Positions 35,918-46,345 of a DNA stretch of 64,000 nucleotides are shown here, piece by piece. Below the pieces are notes generated by a model. It saw nothing but the letters and a program-made list of their open reading frames with translations. It had not been told where the DNA came from and did no database searches. The stretch spans positions 2,909,990 through 2,973,989 of the forward strand of contig LT599018.1 of assembly GCA_900079685.1 (NCBI GenBank), given 5' to 3'. Each line of letters begins with the position of its first letter. The first letter of the stretch is position 1. Position numbers and translations under genes: made by a program. The stretch is from an uncultured delta proteobacterium. Its GTDB lineage: Bacteria > Desulfobacterota > Desulfovibrionia > Desulfovibrionales > Desulfovibrionaceae.

Positions 35918-36568
35918 CTATATCTTTTTATGTCGCGGGATAACGCGCTTCACCGTTTCAGTAGCTTGGCCCTTGGAAAATATCCCTTGCACAAGGGCAA
36001 CCGTCTGGCTTTTTTTGTCCGGGCACAAGTGGGAGTAGCGCTTGGTCATGTCCGGGCTGCTATGGCCGACCATTTCACCAATAACATAGAGCGGAACGCC
36101 CTCCATGGCCAGCCAACTGCAATAGGTGTGACGAAGAGTATGGAAAACAACTTTGTGCCTGCGATCAACATTGGGCGGATTCAGCCCGGCGTCCGCCACC
36201 GCCCGCGCAAAGCTGTTGGTGGCGGAATCAGAGCCAAGCTGCGTTCCCTTTTTGCTGGGGAACAAAAACTCCAATCCATTTTTGCCTGCTACAACCCGTT
36301 CCAACGTTTCATGCACAAGGTCATTGACCGGGATGGAGCGCCTGCCGGTTTTGCCCTCCAGGTGCAGTACGCTGTTTTTCAAGTCCACATCCTGCGGGCG
36401 CAGGCCCAAGATCTCCGAAAGCCGCATCCCGGTATTCAGGGAGATCAGGCTGACGTCATGCCAAAGCTGGCTGCGCTTCTTGACAGCGGCAAGAAGCGTT
36501 TGCGCCTCATCCGCCGTCAAAAAGCGGTCGCGGGCATTGTCCACCTTGGGCAGCTTTACCCTGTCCAT
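35918..36568 (-). pseudogene. tyrosine recombinase, catalytic domain only
   Basis: Catalytic residues are in context (TGMRLSE, HTLRHTYCSWL, GHSSPDMTKRYSH). The N-terminal core-binding domain is absent and the IS30 end abuts at 36592. Confidence 0.75.
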
Positions 36569-36591: not shown

Positions 36592-37347
36592 TTCAAGTTC
36601 AAAGTGCAACACCCAGTCCTTGGGTATTGGCGTCTTCTAAAAAAACTTCATAGGGTGTCTTAAACCCAAGGCATTTTCTAGGCCGCCAGTTCAAGCGGCA
36701 CATTGCCGCTATGATCTCATCTTGCGTGACCGATGCCAAGCTTACCCCCTTGGGGAAGTATTGGCGTAGAAGGCCATTGGAGTTCTCGTTCAAGCCACGC
36801 TCCCACGAATGGTAGGGGTGCGCAAAAAATCCCTGAGCCTCGAGTGTAGCTGACACATCGGCATGGTAGCTGAACTCCTTGCCGTTATCATAGGTAATAG
36901 TCTGAACAAAGTCCTTAATGGGTGTCAAGAGTCCTTCAATGACCCGCCTTACTTCGCTGGCGCTTTTGTTGGGAGCCTTGCCAAACAGGAAAAGACGACT
37001 TTTACGCTCTGCAAGTGTCACCAAAACGGGGCCTCCTTTACTGCCTTCAACGGTATCAGCCTCCCAATCACCAAGGCGTGAGCGCTCGGCAACAATGGAC
37101 GGGCGTATGTCTATGCTGATACGCCCCTTGATTTGACCTCGTCTGTCGGGTTTGCCATATCGTCGTTTGCGTTTGCGCTGGCAGCGCAAATGGCTGTGCA
37201 GCGTTCCTCCTCGTTTTTTGTCCGCCAGAATGTACTGGTAAATCCATTCATGACTGAGGGCAAAACCTTTGCGTTTGAGAACTCCAGAGATTTGCTCCGG
37301 ACTGAAGTCCTGGTGCAGACACTGTTCAACATACGTCCATACCTCAA
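36592..37347 (-). mobile_element. IS30-family element, 5'-truncated copy
   Basis: The transposase ORF (36599..37347) lacks about 75 N-terminal residues. Identity with the window-start copy ends exactly at 37347. A terminal repeat lies at 36592-36614. Confidence 0.85.
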
Positions 37348-38150
37348 ACCGCGGCGGCGAAATCACGAAATAGCTCTACATACGGATAATCAGTTGATTC
37401 TCGGTCTTTGGCTGCATTCGGATAGACCATCAACTCATGTGCAGAGGCATCTTTCAGACCTGGAGCCTTGAGGTAGGGGGTAATAGCTTCGGCCCCAAAA
37501 GGTAATCCAATTCTACGGATGTCTTTGCCAGTCTGAACCCAGTCAATAGACCCATGCAGTTTAGTAAGCCGGGCGACCCCTTCCAGGTATCGGGGTTCAC
37601 CCCGAATGCCCGGCGGATTGTAGTGCATATCAAGGTCTAGCCGCGAAGAACGGAAAATCGGCATTAGCTGACCGACAAAACGATCCAGCAAATGTAGTCC
37701 TGCCAATTCAGCCCCGGCCTCAATGAGCCGGTCATAGTTGGTGGTGAAAATATTCAACCGATCACGCGTGCCTGAGCGACTGGCAAAACTCATAAGAAAC
37801 GTAACCAATGTATTGAAAGCGAACTCCTGTTTGCTTCCTTCGGCTTCCGCTATGGCGGTTTCATTTTTAAGAATGGAATGAGAAAAGGCATCCATCGCGG
37901 CAGCGATCTCTGTTTGCAGAGTTTCTGCCTTGTCCTTTTCCCCAAGAATCTCTAAACCACGCAATAGTTCATTGGCGACGCGAAGCTGATCTTCCAGATT
38001 CCCCTGTTTCCTGCCGGTTTTGCCTGCCGCCTCTTGAGCTGCCGCACCAATTTCATCTTTAAAACTGGGTAGGTTCGCCTCTCCCATGCCTGCGGCTTGT
38101 TTGTCAGACGCCAGGCTATGCACTGCATTGGTGAGCCCGGAGCCTACCAT
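37348..38150 (-). pseudogene. SIR2-like (SIR2_2 type) defence-associated protein, 3'-truncated by IS30
   Basis: FTTNYDRLIE and LTKLHGSIDW motifs. The reading frame runs straight into the truncated IS30. Confidence 0.65.
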
Positions 38151-38559: not shown

Positions 38560-38880
38560 TGGGACTCCATGTAGTCTATCTGACCGAGACCAAGCCTCCT
38601 GAACAATGTTCGGCTCAAGACCTAATCGATGAATTGGTAAGGCGGGCTTTGCAAAAGAGGGATAAGTCTGAGGTAGCTGGTGAGGTCGCCAGTTCATGGT
38701 TCCCAACTGAAAAGAAATAGTCCAGTCCACAAATGAAGCGGGATAAAGGGATTTTCCCCTTTGTCCCGTTTTTCTATCCTGCTAATCCCATTGGATATAT
38801 ACAGAACCACTCCAAATCACTCCTTTTGCTCCATTCGGCAATGAAAAAAGGACTTTCGGTGTTATCCGAAAGTCCTTGAT

Positions 38881-38935
38881 TTCTCTGGCTCCCCGGGACG
38901 GGGTTGAACCGCCGACCTAGTGATTAACAGTCACC
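38881..38935 (-). repeat. tRNA-Asn 3'-end copy (att-type direct repeat, left)
   Basis: 55 bp identical to 46265-46319 (50 nt of the tRNA 3' end plus 5 nt). It has its own terminator-like hairpin at 38851-38877. Confidence 0.9.
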
Positions 38936-39039
38936 TATAAAGATAAGTAATTTCAGTTAATTATAATTTAACCATTTGGAATTGCATGGCTTTGCAAGCG
39001 CATGAATGTGTACGAAATTTCAGGCTTTTTCAGCTCAAG

Positions 39040-39084
39040 TGGAGCAAAATTGGAGCAAATGGAGCAGGCGTTTTCTCTGCTCCA
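39040..39084. repeat. TGGAGCA repeat cluster (candidate integrase arm-type sites)
   Basis: TGGAGCA at 39040, 39051 and 39060; inverted TGCTCCA at 39078. Confidence 0.5.
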
Positions 39085-39090
39085 CCGAAC

Positions 39091-39393
39091 TTATTGATGC
39101 GCCACAGGCCCGCAATCTGTTTTCACGTCGAGGGGAACGCCAAGCGACTTGGTAATCTTCAAAATAGTCTCAAAGCGGGGCTTTGTCCCAGGGGAAAAGG
39201 TCTTATACAGGCTTTCCCGGCTGAGGCCGGTATCTTTGGCGAGTTGCGCCATACCCCGCGCTTTTGCCACGTCGCCAAGGGCGGCAAGGAAAACATCCGG
39301 GTTGGGGTCCTCCAGGCAAGCGGAGAGGTATTCCGCTATCACTTCTTCATTGTCGAGATAGCGGGCGACGTCAAATTCACGAATCTTGATCAT
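39091..39393 (-). CDS. addiction-module antidote protein (HigA-like)
   Basis: YLDNEEVIAEYLSACLEDPNPDVFLAALGDVAKARGMAQLAKDTGLSRESLYKTFS is typical of the antidote family. 4-nt overlap with the upstream killer gene. Confidence 0.75.
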   Translation of the reverse strand: MIKIREFDVARYLDNEEVIAEYLSACLEDPNPDVFLAALGDVAKARGMAQLAKDTGLSRESLYKTFSPGTKPRFETILKITKSLGVPLDVKTDCGPVAHQ

Positions 39394-39695
39394 AGCCCTT
39401 TCTCCTTAATTTCTCGCCACATGGCTTTCGCCAGCTTGATGTCCCGCGCCTGTGAGCTTTTGTCTCCGCCAACTATGAGCAGATAGACGTTCAGCCCTTC
39501 TTGCGCGTAATACACCCGATAGCCAGGGCCGAAATCAATGCGCATTTCTGAAACACCCTCTCCTGCCGGTTTGCAATCTCCGAAGTTTCCCGCTTTAGCC
39601 GACCGCAGCCGGGCGAATATTCGCGCCCGGCCCTTATGGTCTTTGAGCTTTTCCAGCCAATCGGCGAAAATATCCGTTTCATGAAGGGTATTCAT
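39390..39695 (-). CDS. addiction-module killer protein (RelE/HigB-like)
   Basis: FADWLEKLKD...ARLRSAKAGNFGDCKPAGEGVSEMRIDFGPGYRVYY...LLIVGGDKSSQARDI. Confidence 0.75.
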   Translation of the reverse strand: MNTLHETDIFADWLEKLKDHKGRARIFARLRSAKAGNFGDCKPAGEGVSEMRIDFGPGYRVYYAQEGLNVYLLIVGGDKSSQARDIKLAKAMWREIKEKGL

Positions 39696-39790
39696 GGAGG
39701 CATTGTAGCCTATGGGATACAAAAGTCAAGAGCACCATGAAGCGTTCACTTGAAAAAATAAGGTTATCTGCCGCATGCCGTAAGCCCGGT

Positions 39791-40297
39791 TTATGAACCG
39801 GCGAAAAGCCGCCTGACATGGTCCAGCCCAAGAAAGAGAACGAGCGGATCAAAGGGCGAGGCGGCAAAGCCCCGCGCCCGGTAAAAGGCGGCAGCCCGCT
39901 CATGCAGCGCATGGACGAGCAAGGCGCGAATGCCCGCAATGTCCGCCGCCTGAAGCGTCCTCAACAGGGCGTCCCGTAACATGCCGGTCCCAGCGTTTTG
40001 TCCGGCATAACGCCGGTCAACCGCAAGGCGGGCCAGAATCATAACCGGAATGGGCTGGGGCATGTTCCGCCGGACACTGCCCGGCGCGAACTTGTGTTCA
40101 ATGCTCCCCACAGCCAAAGAGTAATACCCGGCAACCTCGTTGCCGGAGCAGACGACATAGGTGCGGGTAGCGCCGGAAGTTTCGTTTTTCAGCGCCCGCT
40201 GGCGCAACCAGTCATCCAGCGAAGATTCCCCGCAAAAAAACTGGGAGGCATCATGCGCCGCAGTCAGTGGGGCAGGAGCGGAGAGCGCCAAGCTCAT
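39791..40297 (-). CDS. GNAT-family acetyltransferase toxin (TacT/KacT-like)
   Basis: FFCGESSLDDWLRQRALKNE...GYYSLAVGSI...LARLAVDRRYAGQNAGTGML. ATGA overlap with the upstream DUF1778-type gene. Confidence 0.75.
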   Translation of the reverse strand: MSLALSAPAPLTAAHDASQFFCGESSLDDWLRQRALKNETSGATRTYVVCSGNEVAGYYSLAVGSIEHKFAPGSVRRNMPQPIPVMILARLAVDRRYAGQNAGTGMLRDALLRTLQAADIAGIRALLVHALHERAAAFYRARGFAASPFDPLVLFLGLDHVRRLFAGS

Positions 40298-40569
40298 TGT
40301 TTTTGCCACGGCGCTTGGGTTGCGAAAAGTTTGCCCAAACCGCGCACCTGTTCCTCGGATGGCGGGGTGTCCAGGGCTGTTTGCAGTTCGTTCCACGTAT
40401 CGCTGTCCAGCGTGAAGCGCGTCCGGTCGAGAATCACCTCTTCAGCAATCCGGAGGGTGTTTTCAAGAATAAACGCCGTCCGGCTTTTTCCCATGCTCTG
40501 GGCCGCCTGGTCGATCAGCGCTTTTTCCGCGTCGGAAATACGCAGGTTTATGGATGCTGTCGCGGTCAT
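40294..40569 (-). CDS. DUF1778-family antitoxin (TacA-like)
   Basis: INLRISDAEKALIDQAAQSMGKSRTAFILE is the typical ribbon-helix-helix N-terminus. AGGAG lies upstream. Confidence 0.75.
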   Translation of the reverse strand: MTATASINLRISDAEKALIDQAAQSMGKSRTAFILENTLRIAEEVILDRTRFTLDSDTWNELQTALDTPPSEEQVRGLGKLFATQAPWQKQ

Positions 40570-40655
40570 GGCGATGGTCTCCTTTTTCAGGAAAATATAG
40601 CGCCCTCTTGCGTTTGTCAATACATTGTATATACAGACAGGCGCACTCAAAAATC

Positions 40656-40944
40656 TTAGCGCCCGGCCAGATCATCTTTGTACATCATATAGGCAATGAC
40701 GGCCTTTTTAATAAAATTCCTGACAAATTCATACTCACTCATCAACAGCAACAAATCCAGGGCAGTCATTCCCGTACCTTTGTAATACCAGTTTCTCACT
40801 CTCTCGGTCGGGAGGACAAGCTCATAGGCTATCTGTTTTGAGGTCAATCGCTGCTTTCTTATGATTTCCACAAGATGCTTTGTCAGATGATTATTCCCAC
40901 GCGCATTTTTGTGGCAAATCTGCCACAAGTTACTTCTGGACATG
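40656..40944 (-). CDS. hypothetical HTH-like protein
   Basis: 96-aa ORF preceded by AGGAG, divergent from the serine recombinase gene. Confidence 0.4.
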
Positions 40945-41009
40945 CATTTCTCCTTAGTTAAAAGTATGAATCTGGATTTTTTCAGCCGCTGCAAGGAGAT
41001 ACAAGCCAG

Positions 41010-42578
41010 ATGCCACAGGCGGGAACCGCATATACAATAGGTGAAATAAAGAAACTGCGCCTGAGAGGTGCCATGTATATCCGCATGTCCACAGAATTGC
41101 AGGTGGAGTCCCCCGAAAATCAGGGGCGTGAAATACGTGCGTATGCAGACAGTTACGGCATTGAAATCGTCTCAATATACACCGATCTTGGCGTCAGCGG
41201 CATGAAGGCCGAGGGGCGCGAGCAATTTCAAGCCATGCTGGATGATGTCGAATCCGGTCGTAATGAATACAGCATCGTTTTGTATCTGGATGACAGCCGG
41301 TGGGGGCGCTTTGTCGATAGTGGGGAGGCGGAATATTACCGCATGCGGCTGAAACTCAGAGGAGTTATCTGCCAGGCCTGCGACAAGCCGCTTACCATGA
41401 CCGCTACTTTTGCGGATCGCCTTCTGACGATGGTGAAAGACGAGAGCGCCAGTGACTATTGCCGCCAGCTTTCGCAAAAAGTGTTTGTCGGCCAACGCAA
41501 TCTGATTCTAAAGGGATACAGGCAAGGCGGTCCGGCGGGGTTCGGCTTACGCCGGGTGCTTGTGGATGAATCCGGAAACCCCAAGCAAGAGTTGACTATC
41601 GGCCAACGCAAAAGCCTCCAGACAGAAAGAGTCGTGCTGGCCCCCGGTCCTGGGGCTGAACAGGAAACCGTGCGCTGGATGTACGATCAGTTCATTGCCG
41701 GAGCACGGGAAACAGAAATCGCGGACATGCTTAATGCCGAAGGCTGCCTGACGGACTTTGGCAGATTCTGGACGAGAGGTTCTGTACGGGAAGTGCTGAC
41801 CAACGAAAAATATATCGGCAACAACCTGTACAACCGCAGATCCGGAAAATTGAAAAGCAAGCCCAAGCCAAATCCGGAGAGCGAATGGATACGGAAGGAA
41901 CGAGCTTTCCAGCCGGTTGTTGATGCCGAACAATTCTACACCGTTCAAAGGCTCATCCGGGAGCGGCATAAAAAGATATCCGACATTGAGATGCTGGAAC
42001 GTCTCAGATCGTTACATGCTCAAACGGGCCGCTTGTCCGCCATGATCATTGACGAGTCGGAAAACATGCCTCCGAGCAGTCTTTATAGCAGCCGGTTTGG
42101 CGGATTGCTGCGCGCGTATACCCTGATCGGGTATATGCCGGAGCGGGATTACCGGTATGTGGAGATTAACCAGAGACTCCGGATCTTGCACGGTGATATT
42201 GTTTCGCAAACAGTGTCGGACATAGAAGAGCTGTGTGGACGGCGAATATGTATCGACCCGGAAACAAGCCTGCTCGAATTGAATCACAATTTATTCATAT
42301 CAATAGTTATCAGCAGATGTTTCCTTACCTCTTTCGGGATGCGCCGGTGGAAAATCCGGTTTGATACCGGGCTACACCCCGACATCACTGTGGCTGTGCG
42401 CATGGATGCGGCAAATGAAAATATACATGATTACTATATCCTGCCCGCGTTGGAATTTGGGAACAGCGCCTTGAGGTTACAGGATGAAAACGCCGATCTG
42501 TTAGATAGTTTTCGTGCGGACAGCCTTGATTACCTTCTGGGAATGAGCATTAACATCAGCCTCGACAAGGCGGTATAA
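41010..42578 (+). CDS. large serine recombinase
   Basis: Resolvase catalytic N-terminus AMYIRMSTELQVESPENQ...YTDLGVSGMK...LDDSRWGR, followed by a recombinase domain. 522 aa. Confidence 0.85.
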   Translation: MPQAGTAYTIGEIKKLRLRGAMYIRMSTELQVESPENQGREIRAYADSYGIEIVSIYTDLGVSGMKAEGREQFQAMLDDVESGRNEYSIVLYLDDSRWGRFVDSGEAEYYRMRLKLRGVICQACDKPLTMTATFADRLLTMVKDESASDYCRQLSQKVFVGQRNLILKGYRQGGPAGFGLRRVLVDESGNPKQELTIGQRKSLQTERVVLAPGPGAEQETVRWMYDQFIAGARETEIADMLNAEGCLTDFGRFWTRGSVREVLTNEKYIGNNLYNRRSGKLKSKPKPNPESEWIRKERAFQPVVDAEQFYTVQRLIRERHKKISDIEMLERLRSLHAQTGRLSAMIIDESENMPPSSLYSSRFGGLLRAYTLIGYMPERDYRYVEINQRLRILHGDIVSQTVSDIEELCGRRICIDPETSLLELNHNLFISIVISRCFLTSFGMRRWKIRFDTGLHPDITVAVRMDAANENIHDYYILPALEFGNSALRLQDENADLLDSFRADSLDYLLGMSINISLDKAV

Positions 42579-42579
42579 G

Positions 42580-43467
42580 ATGGAAGCCAATGAAGTCATC
42601 CTTATCCCCGTTAGTGAAGTCCATATTTTGAATCCGCGCGTGCGTAACCAGAACATCGCTGAAGAGATCCGCCGTAACATCAGGAATGTCGGGCTGAAGC
42701 GCCCTATTACTGTAACCTTAAGCACAAACCGTAAATCCGGGAAAAAATACGATCTCGTCTGCGGCCAAGGACGATTAGAGGCCTTTATTGATGCTGGCGA
42801 AACGGAAATTCCCGCCATCATAATAGAAGTCGACAGGGAAGGCGCTCATATCATGAGCTTGGTGGAAAACATCGCTCGTCGGAACAATAACCCCTTGGAG
42901 TTACTCCATGGTATCACTTACTTGAAAGAGCAAGGCTATACCGATGGGGAAATAGCCGGAAAAACAGGTCTCAGTCGGGAATGGATTCGCGGAATAGGAA
43001 AATTATTGGAAAGCGGAGAAGAGCGCCTGGTGAGCGCGGTGGAAAAGGGGCGTATACCGCTTTCCGTCGCTCTGCAAATTGCTGTCGAAGATGACGCCGC
43101 CATACAGACGGCCCTGATGGAAGCCTATGAGACGGGCCAACTCAGCGGGGCCAAGCTCGTTGCCGTGCAGAGGCTGCTTGATCGACGCAAGCATTACGGC
43201 AAATACTATGGGAAAAAGATGCCAGCTCCTTCAAAAAAGAGGCCGCAGCTCTCCACCGAGGAACTGGTTGCGGTTTATGAGAACAATATCAAAAATAAAA
43301 AACGGCTGATCGCCAAAGCCGACCACCTCAAGCGAGTGCTGGCGTTTTCAGCGGCAGCCCTGAACGAATTGCTGCGTGATGAGCATTTTACCAATCAGTT
43401 AAAGGCGGAAGGGGTGAACGACATTCCCGAACGGCTGGCTGATTTGCTCGGCGAGGTGTACGCATGA
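42580..43467 (+). CDS. ParB/Srx-fold N-terminal domain protein (RepB-like), copy A
   Basis: VHILNPRVRN...YDLVCGQGRLEAFIDAG...SLVENIARR. Starts 2 nt after the recombinase stop. Confidence 0.7.
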   Translation: MEANEVILIPVSEVHILNPRVRNQNIAEEIRRNIRNVGLKRPITVTLSTNRKSGKKYDLVCGQGRLEAFIDAGETEIPAIIIEVDREGAHIMSLVENIARRNNNPLELLHGITYLKEQGYTDGEIAGKTGLSREWIRGIGKLLESGEERLVSAVEKGRIPLSVALQIAVEDDAAIQTALMEAYETGQLSGAKLVAVQRLLDRRKHYGKYYGKKMPAPSKKRPQLSTEELVAVYENNIKNKKRLIAKADHLKRVLAFSAAALNELLRDEHFTNQLKAEGVNDIPERLADLLGEVYA

Positions 43468-44357
43468 GCCCTGGAATCAAACACGGCTTTGAAAGAAAGC
43501 TTGTCACACTCGCCATAGCGGACCTGCGTCTTACCAAAACTCTGTCCGTGCATATCAAACAAGGGCAGAAGTATTTACAAATATTGTCCTCCATCCGGGA
43601 AGCCGGCCTTATTGAACCGCCGGTTGTCGTTCTCTCCGGCAAGGGCCGCGAGTACCTTCTTTTGGACGGGCACCTGCGGATTATGGCGCTGACTGAATTG
43701 GGCAAGACGGAGGTGAACTGTCTGGTGTCGGTGGATGACGAAGGCTACACCTACAACAAGTTCATCAACAGGCTCTCGGCTGTCCAGGAACACAAAATGA
43801 TCGTGAAAGCCCTCAACGATGGTGTTTCTGAAGAAAAGCTGGCGGCGTCGCTAAACCTTAATATAAAATCAATTCGCAATAAAAAGACCATGTTGGATGG
43901 AGTCTGCCAGGAAGCCGCCGATTTGCTGAAAGACAAAATCATGTCGGAGAACGTATTCCGGGTATTGAAGAAAATGAAACCCCTGCGGCAAATCAAGGTC
44001 GCCATGATTATGAACGACCAAAAGCGTTACAGCGATGCGTATGCCAAGATTTTGCTGGAAGGAACGTCTCCCGACCAGCTTGTTCATGAGCCGAAGAAAA
44101 AAAAGCTTTCACCGGCCGCTCTGGAAAAACGCATGCGCCTGGAAGAGGAGAGCATCGCATTGAGCGAGGACATCCGTGCCCTGAATGATTCCTATGGAAC
44201 GGACATGATCCATCTGAACATCGTTCAGTCATATCTGAAAAGGCTGATGGGCAACGAAAAGATTGCGGGCTACCTGCAAAAACATCACCCGGAAACCCAT
44301 GAAAAGTTTTCTGAAATAGCCGAAATGGATTTTTTCAAAATGAAGGCTGTGAGCTGA
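43464..44357 (+). CDS. ParB/Srx-fold N-terminal domain protein (RepB-like), copy B
   Basis: IREAGLIEPPVVV...YLLLDGHLRIMAL. ATGA overlap with copy A. Confidence 0.65.
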   Translation: MSPGIKHGFERKLVTLAIADLRLTKTLSVHIKQGQKYLQILSSIREAGLIEPPVVVLSGKGREYLLLDGHLRIMALTELGKTEVNCLVSVDDEGYTYNKFINRLSAVQEHKMIVKALNDGVSEEKLAASLNLNIKSIRNKKTMLDGVCQEAADLLKDKIMSENVFRVLKKMKPLRQIKVAMIMNDQKRYSDAYAKILLEGTSPDQLVHEPKKKKLSPAALEKRMRLEEESIALSEDIRALNDSYGTDMIHLNIVQSYLKRLMGNEKIAGYLQKHHPETHEKFSEIAEMDFFKMKAVS

Positions 44358-44454
44358 GTTGGGCTGGCCGGAGACACAGAAGGGAGCTGCTCCCGCTCCA
44401 CCTTCTTTTCCAGACCTTTCATCTGCTGCCAAGAACTTCAGTCCATGAGCGAAA

Positions 44455-44495
44455 AGGAGGGGAAGGCCGGATTTTGGCCTTTCCCTCCCTTCACG
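44455..44495. terminator. bidirectional terminator-like hairpin
   Basis: GGAGGGGAAGGCC...GGCCTTTCCCTCC stem (12 of 13 pairs) with flanking T/A runs, between convergent genes. Confidence 0.5.
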
Positions 44496-44744
44496 CTACC
44501 GCTTCTTGTTGCTCTGGCTGACAACGCTGCCCGCCAGCGAGCGGGTCAGGTCGCTGTAAAACGGGTTTTGCAAAATCCGCCCGGCGACGGTTTCCATCTC
44601 GGTCCCGGTTTCGTTGCTCGTTGAAGACTGGGACAGAACGGAACCTGCCAGCCTCCGCTGAATGGCGGAAGCATTTTCATCGGCAAGCGTGCGAGCCGCT
44701 ACGGAGGCCATCGGTTCAGAGGTGCGCTTCGTGTTTTTGGTCAT
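44496..44744 (-). CDS. small hypothetical protein with an internal repeat
   Basis: 82 aa containing RRLAGSVLSQSS and RSLAGSVVSQSN. Confidence 0.4.
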   Translation of the reverse strand: MTKNTKRTSEPMASVAARTLADENASAIQRRLAGSVLSQSSTSNETGTEMETVAGRILQNPFYSDLTRSLAGSVVSQSNKKR

Positions 44745-44940
44745 GATACTATCTCCATGGGGTTATGCAGAACGAGTTTGCGCGTAGCTCTTAAAATGAG
44801 GGGCAATCATCACATTCTTACCGGGGATATTGCGCGCCGGGGATTCGTTCCGCAGGGTTGAATTTCCCCTTTTCGTTTTTCGGCAATGTTTCTATCTGTG
44901 CTGGCGTGGCAGCAGACATGGCTTCTTCATTAGTTGGCTG

Positions 44941-45720
44941 TTATCTCCTTTTCTTCCGCCGACCGCGCTCTCTTGCCAGAAGCAACCACTCCAATTGGAA
45001 GATGTCATGCTGAAAGGCCAAATCCATTGCGGGCTTAAAGCGCTTATTCACATCATTTGGTTCGCTGATGCCCAGTTCACCTGCAATATCCTCGTTGCTC
45101 TTGCCCTCCAGGGCAGCGATGAGGGCACGCAGGTCTTTCCCTTGCTTTTCGCTTTTTGGGTATTGCGGAAGTAGCGCATGCAGCTTCTCCAACGAAGACC
45201 GCGAGAACATTTCTTTGCCTGTGCCGCGAAGAAGTTCCGCATTTCGCACAAGATACAGATAGAACGCCTTCTTCACGGTGATGGATTGCCCCATAAAGTG
45301 CAGGAGTTCTTCTTTTTTGAAGAATATCCGGGAGAAATCTTTCTTTTCCTGAAGCCAGTGATAGTAGACATGAGGCCTGCCGCTAACGGCTTTCCTAAAA
45401 TAGCGTGCGAATGGATCGTTGCTTTCCATAACTCCGGGAATGTTCCCGGTAAAAGGCGTGTCACACTCCACGTAGACTTGGGGGTGCGTCTCCTTGTTTT
45501 CCGGAAGGGCACAGGTCGTTATGAACCTATCCAGCGCCCGCTCAGAAAAAAGATGGGAAAACCTCTCTGATCGGAGGAGCTTTTCGGCGCAGATATAGAG
45601 AGAAGAAGGCTCGGATGTCAGCCGTTCATCTATGTCCAGCACCATGTCGCCAGGAGCCATCTCTTCACCCGGCGTTATGGTGCCGATCTTTCCGGCAATA
45701 CCTGAAAATAAAAAAGACAT
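44941..45720 (-). CDS. hypothetical protein (possible C-terminal HTH)
   Basis: 259-aa ORF from MSFLFSGIAG. The C-terminus ALIAALEGKSNEDIAGELGIS looks HTH-like. No family recognised, and GC is lower than the flanks. Confidence 0.45.
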   Translation of the reverse strand: MSFLFSGIAGKIGTITPGEEMAPGDMVLDIDERLTSEPSSLYICAEKLLRSERFSHLFSERALDRFITTCALPENKETHPQVYVECDTPFTGNIPGVMESNDPFARYFRKAVSGRPHVYYHWLQEKKDFSRIFFKKEELLHFMGQSITVKKAFYLYLVRNAELLRGTGKEMFSRSSLEKLHALLPQYPKSEKQGKDLRALIAALEGKSNEDIAGELGISEPNDVNKRFKPAMDLAFQHDIFQLEWLLLARERGRRKKRR

Positions 45721-45754
45721 TTTTTTTCGAACAGTCGAAATGAAAAGATACATT

Positions 45755-46033
45755 TTATATTCGTCTTGAGGATCCCGGCGAATAGGCGAAACGAGGCTCG
45801 CGATACGAAAACCGAATGTAATCATCAATATAGCGGTCGAGCGCTTCGGCAAGCGTGGTACCTTCCGCCTCCGTGCGGGAGACGAACACACCCCGATCCA
45901 TTTCGCCTTCAATGTCCCGAGCCCAAACTTCGGCTTCGTATTTGGTTTCAAAGGTCTTGCAGGTGACGGGCCACCCTTTACGGCGAATGCGGGCTTCCCA
46001 TTGCAGGTCGCCGCGTTTTCGGATTGTTGCCAT
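45755..46033 (-). pseudogene. tyrosine integrase, N-terminal arm-binding stub
   Basis: MATIRKRGDLQWEARIRRKGWPVTCKTFETKYEAEVWARDIEGEMDRG is a classic integrase N-terminus. It loses similarity after ...LDRYIDDYI and stops, with no catalytic domain. Confidence 0.75.
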
Positions 46034-46172
46034 GCCGTTCCTCCTTGCTCCATTTTGCTCCACTCCCGAACAGACTTGAAAAAGCACTCGCGCCATAGCC
46101 GGGGTGAAGCGGCTGCTATGAAAAAGTAGCCCGCTATCATTCGGGCTTTTCAGCCAGTTCCGAAAGCGTGAG

Positions 46173-46211
46173 TGGAGCAGCCGTTGGAGCAAGTGGAGCA
46201 AATTTGGAGCA
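46173..46211. repeat. TGGAGCA repeat cluster (candidate integrase arm-type sites)
   Basis: TGGAGCA at 46173, 46185, 46194 and 46205, with 9-12 nt spacing. Two inverted copies lie at about 46044-46062. Confidence 0.5.
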
Positions 46212-46221
46212 ATAAAGCAAA

Positions 46222-46260
46222 TGAAAACGAAAAAGGGACTTACGATCTCTCGTAAGCCCC
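46222..46260 (-). terminator. intrinsic terminator of tRNA-Asn
   Basis: Stem GGGGCTTACG/CGTAAGTCCC (one mismatch). On the minus strand it is followed by TTTTTCGTTTTC. Confidence 0.65.
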
Positions 46261-46269
46261 TGATTTCTC

Positions 46270-46345
46270 TGGCTCCCCGGGACGGGGTTGAACCGCCGAC
46301 CTAGTGATTAACAGTCACCCGCTCTGCCGATTGAGCTACCGGGGA
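46270..46345 (-). tRNA. tRNA-Asn: tRNA-Asn (anticodon GTT)
   Basis: Hand-folded cloverleaf: acceptor TCCCCGG/CCGGGGA, anticodon loop CTGTTAA, T-arm GGCGG-TTCAACC-CCGTC, encoded CCA. Confidence 0.9.

Follow-up and report, generated by a model that had tools for sequence, protein, structure and literature searches.

What is a gene for a site-specific recombinase doing in front of two genes that resemble those of plasmid partition systems, when the three are joined so tightly that they look like a single unit? The question is raised by a locus in a 64,000-nucleotide stretch of DNA from an uncultured delta proteobacterium (contig LT599018.1, positions 2,909,990 to 2,973,989; hereafter the window), where the gene for a large serine recombinase (SR) is followed by genes for two ParB-like proteins, here termed ParB1 and ParB2. 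An earlier reading of the letters of the window (the original prediction) had pointed out this trio and suggested that it might be a self-contained mobile or inversion module, or else a defence module. Here, we favour a mobile module, with reasonable but not high confidence: the trio is probably the core of a self-contained integrative cassette that is moved by its own serine recombinase. The cassette would extend over ~3.7–3.9 kb and comprise the trio, a divergently transcribed regulator gene and a 66-bp control region between them. It would be a mobile element of the serine-recombinase kind whose two accessory proteins are without precedent, and it is apparently undescribed; a full-text literature search found no paper on the coupling of two ParB/RepB-like genes with a serine recombinase, and the phage WO ‘methylase/ParB’ gene that appears in the literature is unrelated to the cassette.

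The three genes are arranged for coupled translation. SR ends on TAA and the ATG of ParB1 follows after one nucleotide (GTA TAA G ATG), while the stop codon of ParB1 overlaps the start codon of ParB2 as ATGA (GCATGAGC); open reading frame (ORF) calls reproduced the exact positions of this unit as first proposed (table 1). The standard resolvase catalytic domain ascribed to the recombinase was recovered by Pfam (Resolvase, PF00239, E = 9e-17), together with a recombinase domain (PF07508, E = 8e-23). Both of the motifs on which the distinction between the two ParB-like proteins had been based, GQGRLEA and DGHLRIMAL, were found, and RepB-like C-termini were likewise borne out, since the RepB model PF07506 covers the C-terminal two thirds of ParB1 (E = 2.5e-17) and of ParB2 (E = 5e-33). 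The ParB_N domain is clear in ParB1 (E = 4.5e-9) and weak in ParB2 (E = 0.0076). Searches of NCBIfam with the trio proteins returned only generic matches or matches far below cutoff (CcrB, parB_part and Noc), and ParB1 and ParB2 belong to PHROGs that have no assigned function. The ratio of nonsynonymous to synonymous substitution (dN/dS) is 0.06–0.10 for each of the three genes, indicating strong purifying selection, with synonymous divergence saturated in the group used for this and for the synonymous-site analysis described below.

The original prediction had proposed a survey of co-occurrence, and the arrangement proved to be conserved far beyond chance. A scan that took a single genome for each species yielded 174 relatives of ParB2. 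In the 80 loci that were kept (numbered here with the prefix L), SR, ParB1 and ParB2 share one strand and one order in essentially all cases in which the contig permits a view of the three. These loci cover Desulfobacterota, Alpha-, Beta- and Gammaproteobacteria, Acidobacteriota, Verrucomicrobiota, Myxococcota and others. A metagenome scan added 379 relatives, the closest of them 80% identical to the window cassette, and of its 54 loci that had enough flanking sequence 51 keep the trio colinear; a profile search found 577 cluster representatives of the ParB2 family at E ≤ 1e-30. The flanks are unrelated: when ORFs around the loci were clustered, the trio genes were present in 68–73 loci and any other cluster in 12 at most.

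Are these genes then a displaced partition system? Relatives are named by NCBI as ‘plasmid partitioning protein RepB C-terminal domain-containing protein’, and this name, together with the PF07506 matches in both ParB proteins, would fit an inert remnant of a RepB-type partition or replication locus that had been joined by chance to a recombinase gene. Classical partitioning had already been judged unlikely for want of a ParA partner, and ParA is indeed absent: no ORF with a deviant Walker-A motif (KGGxxK[ST]) occurs in any frame of the 64-kb window, nor among 1110 ORFs within ~8 kb of the 80 related loci. Because ParA is missing both here and in the relatives, the locus is not a classical partition locus. 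A repABC-type RepB operon was also rejected as an identity for the cassette, which resembles repABC RepB in the C-terminal two thirds of its ParB proteins but has no ParA/RepA-type gene nearby (RepC was not specifically searched for) and is found in chromosomes, islands and prophages as well as plasmids, across many phyla. A trio order kept in hundreds of species, purifying selection and translational coupling argue strongly against an inert remnant; we consider that explanation extremely improbable, and effectively refuted by the conservation data.

Evidence for movement comes from loci in which occupied and empty sites can be compared. In Sinorhizobium sp. K101, an insertion of 3887 bp lies within yifB/comM, a gene for a Mg-chelatase-like AAA ATPase, which it disrupts (L094:4012-7898). 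It contains a regulator of 149 aa, SR (523 aa), ParB1 (296 aa), ParB2 (299 aa) and nothing else, with proteins 45–47% identical to those of the window, and SR is the sole recombinase inside this minimal unit. In S. meliloti Ak57 the same gene is uninterrupted, providing the empty site (L095:3324-3327). One TGCT is found in the empty site and one at each junction of the K101 insertion, whose ends lie 18 bp past the regulator stop codon and 34 bp past that of ParB2. The joined element ends would read ...GGATGCCACG-TGCT-AACGTTGTGC..., and the S. meliloti yifB sequence around the target is ATCTGCTGATGG. Few identical bases are expected at the junctions of serine recombinase insertions, and the K101 insertion is similarly precise.

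A second case is found on Agrobacterium plasmids. The only block common to pAt of A. fabrum C58 (ATU_RS24135-24150) and pAt1D1460 is 3.9 kb long, is 96.9% identical and consists of the regulator, SR, ParB1 and ParB2. On both sides it is flanked by an imperfect direct repeat (CCTTGAnnGGnnTnGAACC), the reverse complement of which resembles the T-arm and acceptor end of a tRNA. Plasmids that are free of the cassette have one copy of this tRNA-like site; it adjoins an AbiE pair or a Fic gene and coincides exactly with the point at which homology to the occupied plasmids breaks off. Isolated fragments resembling tRNA 3′ ends are also seen directly downstream of Fic or AbiE genes on rhizobial plasmids (L089:3283-3340, L090:3896-3950, L091/L092 ~1440-1525 and L088:5545-5580), and these look like att-site remnants that serve as recombination breakpoints. 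Motifs of the tRNA T-loop type were rejected as general cassette edges, since they bracket the cassette in Agrobacterium only and occur in the window only at the level of the island described below; tRNA-Ser 3′-end repeats in L013, L023 and L025 were not above a shuffled null.

The boundaries of the cassette were also read from highly similar pairs, because noncoding DNA would not align in any case at the divergence between the window and its relatives, where DNA similarity covers 40705–44357 only. In cassettes that are 91–98% identical and occupy different contexts (L045/L053, L049/L064 and L020/L023/L025/L028), homology is lost within ~10 bp of the ParB2 stop codon; on the other side it is lost 100–190 bp upstream of SR, at or just beyond the regulator or promoter. 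Compared across such contexts, the cassette is shown, or at least strongly implied, to move as one unit between unrelated chromosomal, plasmid and island sites, and the option of a self-contained mobile module drew its backing from the Sinorhizobium pair and the Agrobacterium repeats. Large serine recombinases integrate and excise between short att sites with a 2-bp crossover; for the cassette, the evidence on this point is comparative and consists of the TGCT at the K101 junctions and the att-like Agrobacterium repeats.

Several observations weigh against the view of an integrative cassette moved by its own recombinase. There is one clean pair of occupied and empty sites and one att-like case in all, and the Agrobacterium repeat is the only one that coincides with homology breakpoints. 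For the window cassette, the nearest relatives are just 78–84% identical, and its own empty site was not found among 301 genomes of the same family, where only the flank that carries the GNAT/TacA pair has homologues: region 39940–40640 has DNA homologues of 66–79% identity in 18 of the 301, and full-length homology stops at query position 690–700 (~40630–40640), just before the left edge of the cassette. No significant target-site repeat flanks the window cassette, and none lies in the segments put forward earlier as att candidates (40650–41010 and 44357–44500), the first of which contains the operator- or parS-like palindrome discussed below. A test for flanking direct repeats in 60 loci and the window gave 14–16 of 20, equal to mismatched controls. 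Cassettes of Ensifer and Paraburkholderia lie inside larger islands with no empty sites there, and copies within the same genome are divergent rather than identical (L014/L022 and L043/L046), with no multiplication of the kind seen for insertion sequences. Island residence and divergent copies therefore indicate an occasional integrative element or an island integration module, and not a proliferating insertion sequence. The cassette may possibly be mobilised in trans by another recombinase, and contact of the ParB proteins with SR or its sites is hypothetical. The alternative of an inversion module did not hold up, as no meaningful or significant flanking inverted repeats were found.

The replicons on which the cassette resides bear on a further explanation, in which it maintains its carrier. 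SR would resolve multimers or tandem arrays of the carrier, while the ParB pair would stabilise or silence the element as a clamp independent of ParA, acting either as a tether of the centromere type or, in the manner of KorB, as a repressor at long range. The cassette is present on 110 PLSDB plasmid records, often large rhizobial plasmids, and in one phage record, and it usually occurs once per element. In the genome from which the window derives it is single-copy, and two of 41 related genomes have it. Upstream neighbours across the loci include housekeeping genes as well as tyrosine integrases (6/86), the latter at the heads of islands (L030/L035), and a tRNA gene lies within 8 kb in 16 of 60 loci. 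The plasmid records, the position at island heads, the single and divergent copies, the likeness of ParB1 to KorB and Noc, and an Agrobacterium cassette that sits between two att-like sites in the fashion of a tandem array are all consistent with maintenance. The K101 unit, however, lies alone in a housekeeping gene of the chromosome, where there is no carrier that it could maintain, and no res-like repeated subsites were seen. Moreover, SR at 522 aa, with its recombinase domain, is of the integrase/transposase type and not of the small resolvase/invertase type (Tn3 resolvase, Hin/Gin; ~180–200 aa). On balance, maintenance appears unlikely.

The genes that surround the cassette raise the other option of the original prediction, a DNA-targeting defence or exclusion module, in which ParB clamps, loaded onto invading DNA of phages or plasmids, would bring in SR to break or scramble it. 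Downstream neighbours across the loci are rich in restriction–modification (RM) methylases, ResIII and DEAD helicases, type I RM and SWI2/SNF2 genes; on Agrobacterium and Paraburkholderia plasmids the neighbours include AbiE, Fic, restriction enzymes, Abi and P63C, and in the window a SIR2 gene, a Gp49-like/antidote pair and a GNAT/TacA pair lie nearby. ParB2 has a weak match to a defence model of PADLOC-DB v2 (PD-Lambda-5_A, E = 7.5e-4) and a second weak match (E = 2.6e-3). Neither SR nor ParB1 has any match in that database, no match reaches a meaningful level, and the literature search found no paper that describes such a system. The cargo regions of islands are rich in defence genes whatever else they hold, and residence of the cassette in the cargo regions of mobile elements explains these neighbourhoods equally well, while the precise, stand-alone K101 insertion with its junction microhomology carries the signature of a mobile element. 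Because PADLOC is unmatched and the minimal element holds four genes and no others, a defence module is not supported, and we regard it as improbable.

What distinguishes the integrative cassette from other serine-recombinase elements lies in its proteins. In serine integrases, a zinc-ribbon with an embedded coiled-coil controls synapsis and binds the directionality factor. SR has the resolvase-type catalytic serine domain and the recombinase domain of known large serine recombinase elements (Tn4451 TnpX, Tn5397 TndX, SCCmec CcrAB, and PhiC31, Bxb1 and SPbeta SprA), and among 53 SR sequences residues Y23, R25, S27, R97 and R100 are invariant, so that the enzyme is predicted to be catalytically intact. 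Its AlphaFold model has a predicted local distance difference test (pLDDT) score of 79.5, and in Foldseek it matches SPbeta SprA and the PhiC31 and Bxb1 integrases over ~325 residues only. In place of a zinc-ribbon/coiled-coil, SR has a C-terminal domain of ~200 aa (approximately residues 325–522; helices followed by a beta-rich part), which is conserved in the family and has no match in the PDB or BFVD. No zinc-ribbon family of Pfam matches SR and no cysteine is conserved in the 53 sequences. SR is thus a large serine recombinase by its catalytic and recombinase domains, although it lacks the zinc-ribbon and coiled-coil that mark the class.

ParB1 has the architecture of a ParB/Spo0J-type protein, with a helix–turn–helix (HTH) and a RepB-like helical C-terminus, and its sequence matches Spo0J, ParB, Noc and KorB in the PDB. 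All three nucleotide-binding boxes are intact as invariant motifs (NPRxR, G62xG64R65 and E96N97xA99R100); the protein thereby resembles the ParB clamps that use cytidine triphosphate (CTP), namely those of ParABS, Noc and the KorB-KorA system of RK2, in its NPRxR/GxxR/ENxxR boxes, its HTH and its helical dimerisation end. ParB2 keeps GxxR (G69, R72), and a conserved loop, DDEGYTYN, stands in place of ENxxR. No sequence match to ParB2 exists in the PDB, and its structural model (pLDDT 81) matches the folds of CTP-bound ParB, Noc and KorB; both proteins are predicted to share this fold. Profiles of ParB1 and ParB2 align with each other by hhalign with 97% probability over 255 columns, and the homology extends over the whole length. 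Judged from these alignments, ParB2 is an ancient, diverged paralogue of ParB1 that has the same architecture and a degenerate third box. Since one complete and one degenerate paralogue are obligate companions and translationally coupled, they suggest an asymmetric pair.

The regulator gene and its palindrome are parts of the cassette that had been overlooked in the original prediction. The gene probably starts with the ATG at 40943, which an AAGGAG ribosome-binding site precedes, and the 112-aa ORF with a TTG start is probably too long. The regulator is kept in the 13 closest loci (L001–L013) at 40–67% identity; the window protein has no match in Pfam or PHROG, and by eye it shares the motif ‘...VRNW..G......L..L’ with small genes upstream of the trio in other subgroups. 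Some of the small genes in that place match XRE or winged-HTH families of Pfam, and in a few loci the place is taken by a small same-strand gene that is rich in cysteine codons. The control region between regulator and SR is partly conserved within the subgroup, including the SR ribosome-binding site AAGGAGATA.

The 5′ end of the regulator gene includes a palindrome with perfect arms, which lies ~100 bp before the start of SR, occurs once in the window and is found at about the same relative position in 12 of 13 close relatives. Nowhere in the cassette are synonymous sites more conserved than here (0.80, compared with a mean of 0.46, at saturated synonymous divergence). In L008, both arms are altered together and the encoded amino acids are altered too; the symmetry of the DNA itself is therefore under selection. 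The palindrome is the leading candidate for a loading site of the parS kind or for an operator. Other subgroups of the cassette have different palindromes or none that is obvious. The betaproteobacterial loci L018, L020, L023 and L025 have conserved palindromes of their own, TTTCGCGCTGATAACGTCCGCGCGAAA and TCTCACTTGTGATTGCAAATGAGA, ~155 and 200 bp upstream of SR, which suggests that the binding sites co-evolve with each cassette lineage.

How might an integrative cassette of this kind work? SR would cut and rejoin the cassette ends with the target site, and ParB1 and ParB2 would supply in trans the control of synapsis and direction that normally comes from the zinc-ribbon/coiled-coil and a directionality factor. 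As a nucleotide-gated accessory factor, the pair would bind a specific palindrome (here that within the regulator gene) and gate synapsis, direction or target choice, while repression of the operon would fall to the small regulator. More tentatively, the cassettes may form a class of minimal serine-recombinase elements in which a heterodimeric ParB-type switch, probably responding to CTP and with ParB1 as its catalytic and ParB2 as its degenerate half, replaces control by zinc-ribbon/coiled-coil and recombination directionality factor; once loaded at a palindrome specific to the element, this switch would license synapsis, direction or the choice of target. This stronger proposal is possible, though we would not rate it as likely.

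Comparison with known systems sets out what would be new in this design. Large serine recombinases are assisted by a small directionality factor, whereas SR is always co-translated with two ParB-type proteins, and the minimal cassette, unlike elements of that group, carries no cargo. In comparison to ParABS, it has no ParA and possesses two obligate paralogues, one with a degenerate third box, which are coupled to a recombinase and predicted to bind nucleotide; clamps of this fold could plausibly load at a palindrome of 20 bp. MuB and TnsC offer a functional analogy only, as nucleotide-gated DNA-binding partners which act beside a recombinase, and by that analogy the ParB pair could control target capture or immunity. 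Both MuB and TnsC are AAA+ ATPases that work with DDE recombinases, and are unrelated to the ParB/Srx fold and to serine chemistry.

In the window, the cassette lies within a host island of 7.4 kb, bounded by a direct repeat that includes the 3′ half of a tRNA-Asn gene (table 1). Arm-like repeats mark the inner ends of the island, with further TGGAGCA heptamers upstream of a tyrosine integrase stub beside the tRNA. Of this integrase only the first 72 codons remain, and their product shares 63% identity with the N-terminal parts of annotated site-specific integrases. The island has a guanine plus cytosine content of ~50%, against ~60% in its flanks. These features fit an island that once had its own tyrosine integrase and has since lost it, and the SR cassette is best read as an intact passenger or a nested insertion in it. 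The ORFs of 82 and 269 aa between cassette and stub lie beside the cassette in no related locus, and the stretch of terminator-like hairpins 3′ of ParB2 is not conserved among relatives.

Table 1. Features of the window discussed in the text, with positions counted from its first nucleotide.
Feature	Position	Strand	Remarks
SR (large serine recombinase)	41010-42578	+	522 aa; ORF call
ParB1	42580-43467	+	295 aa; ORF call
ParB2	43464-44357	+	297 aa; ORF call
Regulator gene	40656-40943	-	95 aa; fourth cassette gene, divergent from SR
Divergent control region	40944-41009		66 bp; between regulator and SR genes; sequence reading
Palindrome	40909-40928		20 bp, perfect arms; TTGTGGCAAATCTGCCACAA
Terminator-like hairpins 3′ of ParB2	44383-44399 and ~44453-44491 (feature 44383..44491)	+	scan and sequence reading
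Host island	38867-46319		7.4 kb; bounded by 69-nt direct repeat
Direct repeat	38867-38935 and 46251-46319		69 nt, 96% identical; includes tRNA-Asn 3′ half
tRNA-Asn	46270-46345	-	
Arm-like repeats	39036-39058 and 46190-46212		23 nt; CAAGTGGAGCAAAnTTGGAGCAA; inner island ends
Tyrosine integrase N-terminal stub	46033 down to 45817	-	72 aa; beside tRNA
Gp49-like/antidote pair	39091-39722		cassette neighbour
GNAT/TacA pair	39791-40650		cassette neighbour, toxin-antitoxin
ORF	44496-44744	-	82 aa; no family assignment
ORF	44941-45750	-	269 aa; no family assignment; possible HTH (weak sigma-70 r4/LuxR-like, C-terminal)
SIR2-type defence gene and abutting ORF	37344-38150 and 36599-37366	-	PADLOC PDLC04079, E = 7e-102; abutting ORF with weak, below-cutoff rve (DDE integrase core) match
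Separate C-terminal tyrosine-integrase fragment	35918-36568		

Two further features were seen at other loci. Directly 3′ of ParB2, 18 of 82 loci, mostly alphaproteobacterial, have a conserved GC-rich element of ~106 nt (L014:8929-9034, L051:8901-9006) with three predicted hairpins and compensatory changes at six base pairs. The element, which matches no Rfam family, may be an RNA or else a structured site in the DNA. A model of this element (R1) scored 9 bits at best in the window (E = 1.5), and the element is absent from the window, L001–L013, Agrobacterium and K101. Since it is missing from the window and from the minimal K101 element, it is not a required part of the cassette. In L027 it lies 450 bp downstream in inverted orientation. 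In a Lautropia metagenome-assembled genome (L028:2569-5718), the SR gene is split by ~3.3 kb with three consecutive ORFs, two of which cluster with a tyrosine-recombinase-like protein; this may be an insertion of the recombinase-in-trio type.

For annotation, the finding means that a ‘plasmid partitioning protein RepB C-terminal domain-containing protein’ beside a ‘recombinase family protein’ is to be read as a mobile cassette and not as a partition locus. Serine integrases are major tools of genome engineering, and the control of their direction and synapsis is actively studied, while ParB-fold CTP switches outside chromosome segregation have been recognised only recently. The pairing of a serine recombinase that has no zinc-ribbon with two ParB-type proteins is seen in hundreds of species. 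If the ParB pair does gate recombination, it would represent a new mode of recombinase control and the first link between a ParB-CTPase clamp and site-specific recombination, in a compact system of ~3.9 kb for which candidate att sites are at hand in the yifB site of Sinorhizobium and the tRNA-like site of Agrobacterium.

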